From: a phage
Sequence record: X15718.1
Direction: 5' to 3' (one strand)
DNA: 263 nt
Within the stretch, counting starts at the first letter, position 1. Every line of letters begins with the position of its first letter. Positions 1 through 263 of the stretch are shown here, piece by piece. The translations under genes and the position numbers were made by a program. The notes beneath the pieces are model-generated. The model had not been told where the DNA came from and did no database searches. It saw nothing but the letters and a program-made list of their open reading frames with translations.

Positions 1-170
1 GTTCTGCTCGCGATTGTGCTACTGTTGATATTCATCCTCGTACTTCTGGTAATAATGTTTTTGTTGGTGTGATTTGTTCTAGCGCTAAATGGACCTCCGG
101 TCGTGTGATTGGTACCATCGCTACGACTCAGGTTATTCATGAATACCAAGTCCTTCAGCCGCTTAAATAA
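1..170 (+). CDS. G: Major spike protein G of a phiX174-like microvirus, C-terminal portion; 5'-partial (ORF enters from upstream, first complete codon 3-5, stop TAA 168-170)
   Basis: Seen in sequence: the frame with codons at 3-5, 6-8 ... is open from the window start to TAA 168-170 and translates to [55 protein letters not shown]. Established knowledge (from memory): phiX174 G ends ...[52 protein letters not shown]; shared blocks are DC-T-D-PRT-GNNV-VG, QVI and a terminal LQPLK*, with a one-residue length difference. Codon usage is strongly NNT-biased (36 of 55 codons end in T by my count, 21 of the first 22), which is typical of phiX-like phages. The nucleotide sequence differs from phiX174, so this is a related phage. 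No alignment software was run. Confidence 0.86.
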
Positions 171-196
171 AAGGCTGCCGCACTCCCGGTTAGATG

Positions 197-216
197 CCTG
201 CCCAGTGTAGGGCAGG
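197..216 (+). repeat. Perfect inverted repeat / stem-loop: 7-bp GC-rich stem (CCTGCCC 197-203 pairs with GGGCAGG 210-216) and 6-nt loop AGTGTA (204-209)
   Basis: Seen in sequence: GGGCAGG is the exact reverse complement of CCTGCCC. T195/A218 could add one pair across a G196/T217 mismatch, and CTCC 183-186 could pair with GGAG 220-223 as an outer helix. A CTG trinucleotide lies at 198-200 in the 5' arm. There is no T-run after the stem, so it does not look like an intrinsic terminator. Because the phage genome is single-stranded, this hairpin can form in the packaged or infecting DNA. Confidence 0.7.
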
Positions 217-248
217 TACGGAGATACCCGATAAACTAGGAACGTGGA

Positions 249-263
249 AGGCGTTAGCCGCCT
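249..263 (+). repeat. Second short stem-loop, cut by the window end: AGGCG 249-253 pairs with CGCCT 259-263, loop TTAGC 254-258
   Basis: Seen in sequence: AGGCG and CGCCT are exact reverse complements (5 bp). The stem reaches the last base of the window, so its true length is unknown. Short stems like this arise by chance fairly often in GC-rich DNA. Confidence 0.35.

Follow-up and report, generated by a model that had tools for sequence, protein, structure and literature searches.

The G–H junction of phage alpha3 as a G4-type complementary-strand origin, with comparative support for long-range pairing of the 3' arm of an upstream hairpin

The window, by which is meant the whole 263-nt stretch of DNA analysed here (record X15718.1), is matched at all of its 263 bases by positions 4790–5060 of the phage alpha3 genome NC_001330, with one 8-nt gap (megablast; 263/271 = 97.0%), and on the strength of this match it is the junction between genes G and H of alpha3. 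The reading frame that occupies its first part terminates at 170, the position equivalent to the end of the G coding sequence in NC_001330, and in the annotation of alpha3 genes G and H flank a spacer of 135 nt. Inside gene G an imperfect direct repeat of 21 nt was observed at 67–87 and 103–123 (81% identical, 36 nt or 12 codons apart), as was an inverted repeat of 11 nt at 25–35 and 139–149, which lies in coding sequence. Past the window end, the origin described below runs on for about 25 nt. The features in window coordinates are as follows, "near" and "far" referring to the two possible partners of one shared 3' arm.

1–170, plus strand: 3'-terminal part of gene G, for the major spike protein; stop codon TAA at 168–170.
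171–263, plus strand: first 93 nt of the G–H intergenic region, the 5' and central part of the probable origin, as indicated by conservation of the spacer.
173–179, plus strand: putative far 5' arm GGCTGCC, containing CTG 175–177, as indicated by covariation and by the minimum-energy DNA fold of the G4 group.
187–190, plus strand: CGGT, whose partner in relatives is the ACCG of the eight missing nucleotides; predicted outer helix of the near fold.
197–203, plus strand: CCTGCCC, near 5' arm in the reported hairpin, containing CTG 198–200, from the listing of inverted pairs.
204–209, plus strand: loop AGTGTA of the reported hairpin, with the A-TGT positions invariant.
210–216, plus strand: shared 3' arm GGGCAG(G), with 197–203 (near) or 175–179 (far) as its partner.
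217–231, plus strand: conserved block TACGGAGATACCCGA, near-invariant in the alpha3 and G4 groups; in G4 the 5' arm of stem-loop II lies here, but its G4-type partner is absent from alpha3.
232–245, plus strand: spacer of similar length in the alpha3 and G4 groups, with different sequences.
246–263, plus strand: hairpin I, 3 nt short at the window end, identified by pairing in 23/23 origins, the G4 primer annotation and the literature.

The features on which the earlier note had built its case, namely a perfect 7-bp stem, CTG triplets at 175–177 and 198–200 and the absence of CTG from 218–263, are all present. The stem is formed by CCTGCCC (197–203) and GGGCAGG (210–216) around the 6-nt loop AGTGTA, and the DNA fold energies of the segments alone are −7.2 kcal/mol for 197–216 and −8.3 kcal/mol for 195–218. 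Taken alone, the hairpin is only mildly unusual: a perfect hairpin of at least 7 bp with a loop of 3–8 nt is found in 5.7% of the dinucleotide shuffles of the whole window and in 2.7% of those of its non-coding part, and the z-score of the DNA fold of 171–263 is −1.83. On the plus strand CTG occurs at 4, 22, 46, 175 and 198, and no enrichment of this triplet was found in the window, where nine copies on both strands compare with a shuffle mean of 7.5 and nine are reached by 59 of 200 shuffles. The triplets at 175–177 and 198–200 are alternative partners of one and the same CAG (C213-A214-G215).

The seventh pair of the stem, C197–G216, exists because the window is without eight nucleotides, ACCGAGCC, that are absent between positions 215 and 216 (NC_001330 5005–5012), right after the 3' arm of the reported hairpin. 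These nucleotides are contained, nearly invariant, in four alpha3 records and in 22 other origin sequences, and the perfect stem of the alpha3 genome records has 6 bp (CTGCCC/GGGCAG; −6.1 kcal/mol). No match to the sequence across the gap junction was found when viral, metagenome and genome collections were searched. The absent bases make up the 3' strands of both outer helices (ACCG/CGGT and AGCC/GGCT) predicted for alpha3, at a place prone to gel compression, and an error of this kind in an old record is suggested; the gap is probably an old sequencing artefact. It is also because of the gap that only five of the seven pairs of the far stem described below are possible in the window. The 263-nt sequence seems to carry an 8-nt omission in a structured stretch, and structural work or mutagenesis should be designed on the genome records.

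The comparison was based on 23 distinct origins, 19 of them alpha3-like (including five metagenomic or viral contigs) and four G4-like. A gapped pattern anchored outside the hairpin returned only alpha3-like and G4-like microviruses, together with one chance match (L134), and provided the new metagenomic or viral origins L022, L068, L133, L135 and L136. Two other patterns were set aside: the 14-base TACGGAGATACNCGA gave mostly chance matches, in large unrelated contigs, and the matches to hairpin I plus CTG (for example L145 and L148) had no upstream homology and were attributed to chance.

Among the alpha3-like phages the origin spacer is 91–100% identical, whereas the adjacent G-gene sequence is about 60–65% identical. 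With the G4-like phages ID52 and NC6 the identity amounts to 81% over 132 of the 135 nt (blastn, E = 8e-23), and the spacer is collinear with the F–G spacer of G4 along its whole length. Judged by this homology, the alpha3 G–H spacer is a G4-type, primase-dependent complementary-strand origin, an element that is already known; a review cites Sims, Capon and Dressler (1979) for primase-dependent origins in St-1, phiK and alpha3. In G4, according to the literature, primer synthesis requires only SSB and primase and begins at the T of a CTG; three stem-loops lie 5' of this triplet and create two SSB-free regions, to which two primase molecules bind.

The assignment of the reported hairpin to a G4-type origin, considered in the earlier note, holds as far as the region is concerned, which has the character of a G4/alpha3 primase origin, and in the alignment with G4 the hairpin falls inside the conserved origin and not outside it; the hairpin adjacent to the start, however, is hairpin I and not 197–216. 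The G4 record is annotated with the primer at 3970–3997 and the complementary-strand origin at 3998; the primer reads AGUAGGGACGGCGGCUUUCGCCGUCCAU and starts opposite the T of CTG 3996–3998. Alignment to this primer places the homologous alpha3 CTG (CCCTCCTGCTAAG) at NC_001330 5067–5069, corresponding to virtual window positions 270–272, that is, 7–9 nt past the end, where the note had allowed that the initiation triplet might lie. Situated 3' of hairpin I and outside the window itself, this start CTG is invariant in 23/23 full-length relatives. The alternative that the note had left, a start at one of the two CTGs in the window, was not upheld: CTG 175–177 is replaced by CCG or CCA in 18 of the 23 relatives, and CTG 198–200 is invariant (23/23) but situated some 70 nt 5' (upstream) of the homologue of the mapped start.

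Hairpin I consists of GGAAGGCG (246–253), the loop TTAGC (254–258) and CGCCTTCC, a 3' arm of which CGCCT (259–263) is in the window and TCC lies beyond it, so that 18 of its 21 nt are included. Its GC-rich stem of 8 bp is 100% paired in 23/23 origins, one of its pairs having changed in a compensatory manner between the groups (A-T to C-G), and its G4 homologue is covered by the annotated primer. The mini-hairpin motif GCGTTAGC is found at 251–258, and the review describes hairpin I with this motif at the priming site of St-1 and alpha3. Across the 23 origins the loop (columns 116–125 of A3) reads GCGTTAGC in 12, GCGCAAGC in six, GCGAAAGC in two, and GCGTAAGC, GCGTAGC or GCGAAGC in one each. 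Every one of these variants fits the mini-hairpin consensus GCG(N)NAGC (PMC13037366), and they provide comparative support for selection on the motif.

The conservation of the reported hairpin, which the earlier note had treated as decisive for its relevance, is divided. The near stem retains six Watson-Crick pairs in only 3/23 origins and contains a T.G mismatch in mid-stem in 18/23. Its 5' arm stays CTGCC(C/T), three of the six pairs are weakened to G.T, each change being a transition that leaves G.T possible, and no compensatory change was found in this stem among the 23 origins. The variation resides in the shared 3' arm, which reads GGGCAG, GGGCGG or GGGTGG, and GGGGCGG in the G4 group, and it is matched by an arm located about 20 nt further upstream in the combinations GGCTGCC-GGCAG, GGCCGCC-GGCGG and GGCCACC-GGTGG. 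In alpha3 this far stem joins 175–179 (CTGCC) to 211–215 (GGCAG); beyond a bulged A it is continued by GG 173–174, whose CC partner belongs, in relatives, to the eight nucleotides absent from the window. Of the 23 origins, 22 have Watson-Crick pairs only; the exception is WA45 (L142), in which GGGCATGCC stands in place of GGGCAGACC at the equivalent of window 210–216 and the bases that follow, two substitutions that leave 7 bp and displace the bulge by one position.

Two compensatory pairs distinguish seven of the far stems (C-G to T-A in five, G-C to A-T in two), with neither wobbles nor intermediates, and the resulting covariation score was reached by 0/500 shuffles; it rests on two alignment columns, and recombination of the spacer could lower the number of independent events. 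The A-T state is found in Lilleven, of the St-1/phiK lineage, and in NC28, of the ID32/ID62 lineage, the nearest relatives of both being G-C and their flanks 62–74% identical to each other, and the T-A state spans three flanking backgrounds; by their distribution, the compensatory changes do not appear to be confined to one clade. These data support the view that complementarity of the 3' arm GGCAG with the far arm CTGCC (175–179) has been kept in evolution. Two additions were tried and rejected: an inward extension of the far stem (GCACT/AGTGT), obtained from constrained folds, has mismatches in Lilleven, L022, L133 and L135, and pairing of T176 with the A of AGCC does not serve as the source of the covariation, the A being invariant in the alpha3-like group where 176 varies. 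CGGT 187–190 varies on one side only, by C to T. No variation is seen in the near arm CTGCC or at the A-TGT positions of the loop (23/23), a constancy for which a model with the far stem only does not account; this constraint may reflect a protein contact or a second conformation.

The fold energies do not point in one direction. By DNA nearest-neighbour energies, the near fold of alpha3 (the hairpin with CGGT/ACCG and GGCT/AGCC) is favoured by about 3 kcal/mol, with a mean pair probability of 0.93 as against 0.02 for the far stem, and the near fold is the minimum-energy DNA fold in alpha3, St-1 and Lilleven. In most of the other alpha3-like origins the two folds are within 1–2 kcal/mol of each other, and the far fold is that of minimum energy in 9/19 alpha3-like sequences, by 4.7 kcal/mol in NC28. 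The RNAalifold consensus is the near fold, RNAalifold being a program that rewards G.U pairs. The same consensus includes a long-range closure of GGC at the 5' edge of the origin (window 173–175) with GCC just 3' of the start CTG (columns 30–32 with 142–144 of A3; AAGCC past the window end), all positions of which are invariant. For G4, the far stem of GGCCGCCCC with GGGGCGG-A-CC is the minimum-energy DNA fold by about 6 kcal/mol, and on the basis of this predicted fold we take it to be the published stem-loop III. That prediction comprises three stem-loops, in agreement with the number given in the literature. For alpha3 itself thermodynamics and evolution are in conflict; what is new is the comparative support for a long-range stem in the alpha3 group, where thermodynamics alone would choose the local hairpin.

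This conflict gives some room to other readings of the upstream block. The near hairpin might itself be the functional structure of alpha3-type origins, within a bulged stem of about 14 bp that includes CGGT/ACCG and GGC(T)/(A)GCC, and the far pairing would then be relevant in the G4 group alone or its covariation fortuitous. Such a role would suit the minimum-energy fold of alpha3, St-1 and Lilleven, the RNAalifold consensus, the invariance of the near arm and of most of the loop, and the fact that all changes leave at least a G.T pair; it is nevertheless unlikely, given that in 23 sequences no change is compensated, that a T.G mismatch lies in mid-stem in 18/23 and two mismatches occur in Lilleven and NC28, costly in DNA, that nine of the 19 alpha3-like sequences, NC28 among them by its 4.7 kcal/mol, prefer the far fold, and that the far arm exactly compensates the same substitutions. 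A more tentative, and rather doubtful, reading is that the upstream block is a bistable element of single-stranded DNA in which GGCAG toggles between the near and the far arm. Each state would belong to a step of its own, one perhaps to naked or packaged DNA and the other to the SSB-coated priming complex, and a protein, possibly the second primase molecule, would make contact with the invariant CTGCC and A-TGT; if true, this would account for the maintenance of one arm by compensation and of the other by invariance together with wobble-compatible change. Very little, by comparison, speaks for a function of the hairpin in RNA, where it would terminate the gene G transcript or stabilise its 3' end. 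The hairpin does lie directly past the gene G stop codon, the viral strand has the sense of the mRNA, and with G.U pairs the near hairpin would be stable as RNA in all relatives, but neither hairpin is followed by a T-run (TACGGAG comes after the reported one), scans found no terminator-like site in positions 400–800 of the alpha3 locus and no promoter-like site, Rfam gave no matches at E-value ≤1, and the G4 group has the same module after gene F, where it has been shown to be a single-stranded DNA origin. This transcript-level explanation is accordingly held to be highly improbable.

Two further alternatives concern the record and the start site rather than the partner of the 3' arm. The window could derive from a natural variant of alpha3 that has truly lost the 8 nt and that carries a lone near hairpin of 7–8 bp in place of the composite upstream structure, and its sequence indeed folds into the near hairpin with a pair probability of 0.99. 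A deletion is nonetheless improbable in view of the retention of the eight nucleotides in four alpha3 records and 22/22 other origins, the absence of the junction from three large collections, the position of the missing bases in the 3' strands of the outer helices, where gel compression is expected, and the base-for-base identity of the rest of the window with the reference. The least credible possibility is that the reported hairpin is the start-adjacent one and that primase initiates at CTG 198–200 or 175–177: both triplets exist and the former is invariant, yet homology to the annotated G4 primer moves the start past the window end, 3' of hairpin I, CTG 175–177 is missing from 18/23 relatives, CTG 198–200 would be sequestered in the stem of the near fold or in the inner part of the far fold, and the literature places the CTG 3' of all stem-loops. 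A start within the window can hardly be entertained.

The reading that we prefer, with a probability of roughly 0.8, is that the region is the G4-type origin of alpha3, in which the reported hairpin lies upstream, has its 3' arm paired with the far arm, and is an architectural element and not the initiation site. The mechanism is that of published work on G4, extended to alpha3 by homology. The sequence from 171 onward would be the viral-strand template of the complementary-strand (minus-strand) origin. After the single-stranded circle has entered the cell and become coated with SSB, a cluster of stable DNA stem-loops would resist and phase the SSB and leave SSB-free stretches, to which the DnaG primase of E. 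coli would bind without DnaB. The RNA primer would begin at the T of the 5'-CTG-3' just 3' of hairpin I and would copy back through hairpin I. The far stem would be the alpha3 counterpart of the large upstream stem predicted for G4, and the near hairpin a mutually exclusive alternative for the same 3' arm, preferred thermodynamically in alpha3 and without compensation, its perfect 7-bp form being probably in part a by-product of the eight missing nucleotides. The role of the upstream structure would be architectural, in the exclusion and phasing of SSB and in the positioning of primase.

G4-type origins are the classic minimal system for the question of how DnaG finds a start without a helicase, and according to the literature they are still used in studies of primase, SSB and the hand-off to polymerase. 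A correct assignment avoids mistaking an upstream structural hairpin for the initiation hairpin, and CTGs of the window for start sites.

The closest comparison is with G4oric, located in the F–G intergenic region (G4 nt ~3893–3998), with which the alpha3 spacer is homologous throughout. Shared features are hairpin I, whose loop is of the GCG(N)NAGC type, a start CTG that follows this hairpin by 3 nt, the far stem GGCCGCC.../...GGCGG-A-CC and the block TACGGAGATAC. They differ in the far stem, of 7 bp in alpha3 and 9 bp in G4, which leaves the far stem of the alpha3 group with a stability roughly equal to, or below, that of the near hairpin, and in stem-loop II of G4 (CGGAGA/TCTCCG; G4 3946–3965), which has a counterpart in 0/19 alpha3-like origins, with four of its six pairs unpaired in all of them. 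Stem-loop II is a defining feature of G4 proper and not of the wider family that, according to the literature, includes St-1, phiK and alpha3. The block at 219–231 (CGGAGATACCCGA), equivalent to the 5' arm of stem-loop II and the bases that follow it, was observed to be near-invariant across both groups, and since the stem-loop itself is missing from the alpha3-like origins, this block is probably kept for a reason other than its formation.

The element in the window is one of the sites at which negative strands are initiated in St-1, phiK and alpha3 (Sims, Capon and Dressler 1979, as cited in the review). The St-1 and phiK spacers are 94–95% identical to that of the window, which differs from the sites of the three phages in being without ACCGAGCC and in ending 7 nt short of the start CTG. 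Outside this family, the phiX174 primosome assembly site (PriA/n') likewise lies, as a structured signal, in an intergenic part of a Bullavirinae viral strand and initiates complementary-strand synthesis, although it works through a PriA-dependent primosome with DnaB, DnaC and DnaT and leads to many priming sites, not to one CTG used by SSB and primase; to our knowledge, it has no sequence similarity to the G4-type origin. In the M13/fd minus-strand origin and in the G4-type ssi signals of plasmids, SSB-resistant hairpins of single-stranded DNA mark a unique priming site as well, but the M13 minus strand is primed by host RNA polymerase and not by DnaG. The plasmid G4-type ssi signals, as far as we know, are similar in their working and are not sequence homologues. 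Plasmid RSF1010 ssiA, for its part, uses its own primase, RepB' (review).

The slot of the origin also differs, being G–H in alpha3 and F–G in G4 and ID52 (alpha3 L001 571–705 compared with G4 L013 285–420 and with ID52 L009). By genus, the module occupies F–G in Gequatrovirus and G–H in Alphatrevirus, and it is far better conserved than the flanking genes, which suggests that the origin module may have been moved by recombination. Within the alpha3-like phages, the spacer of ID32 is 97.8% identical to that of alpha3, and the flanks are 61–74% identical.
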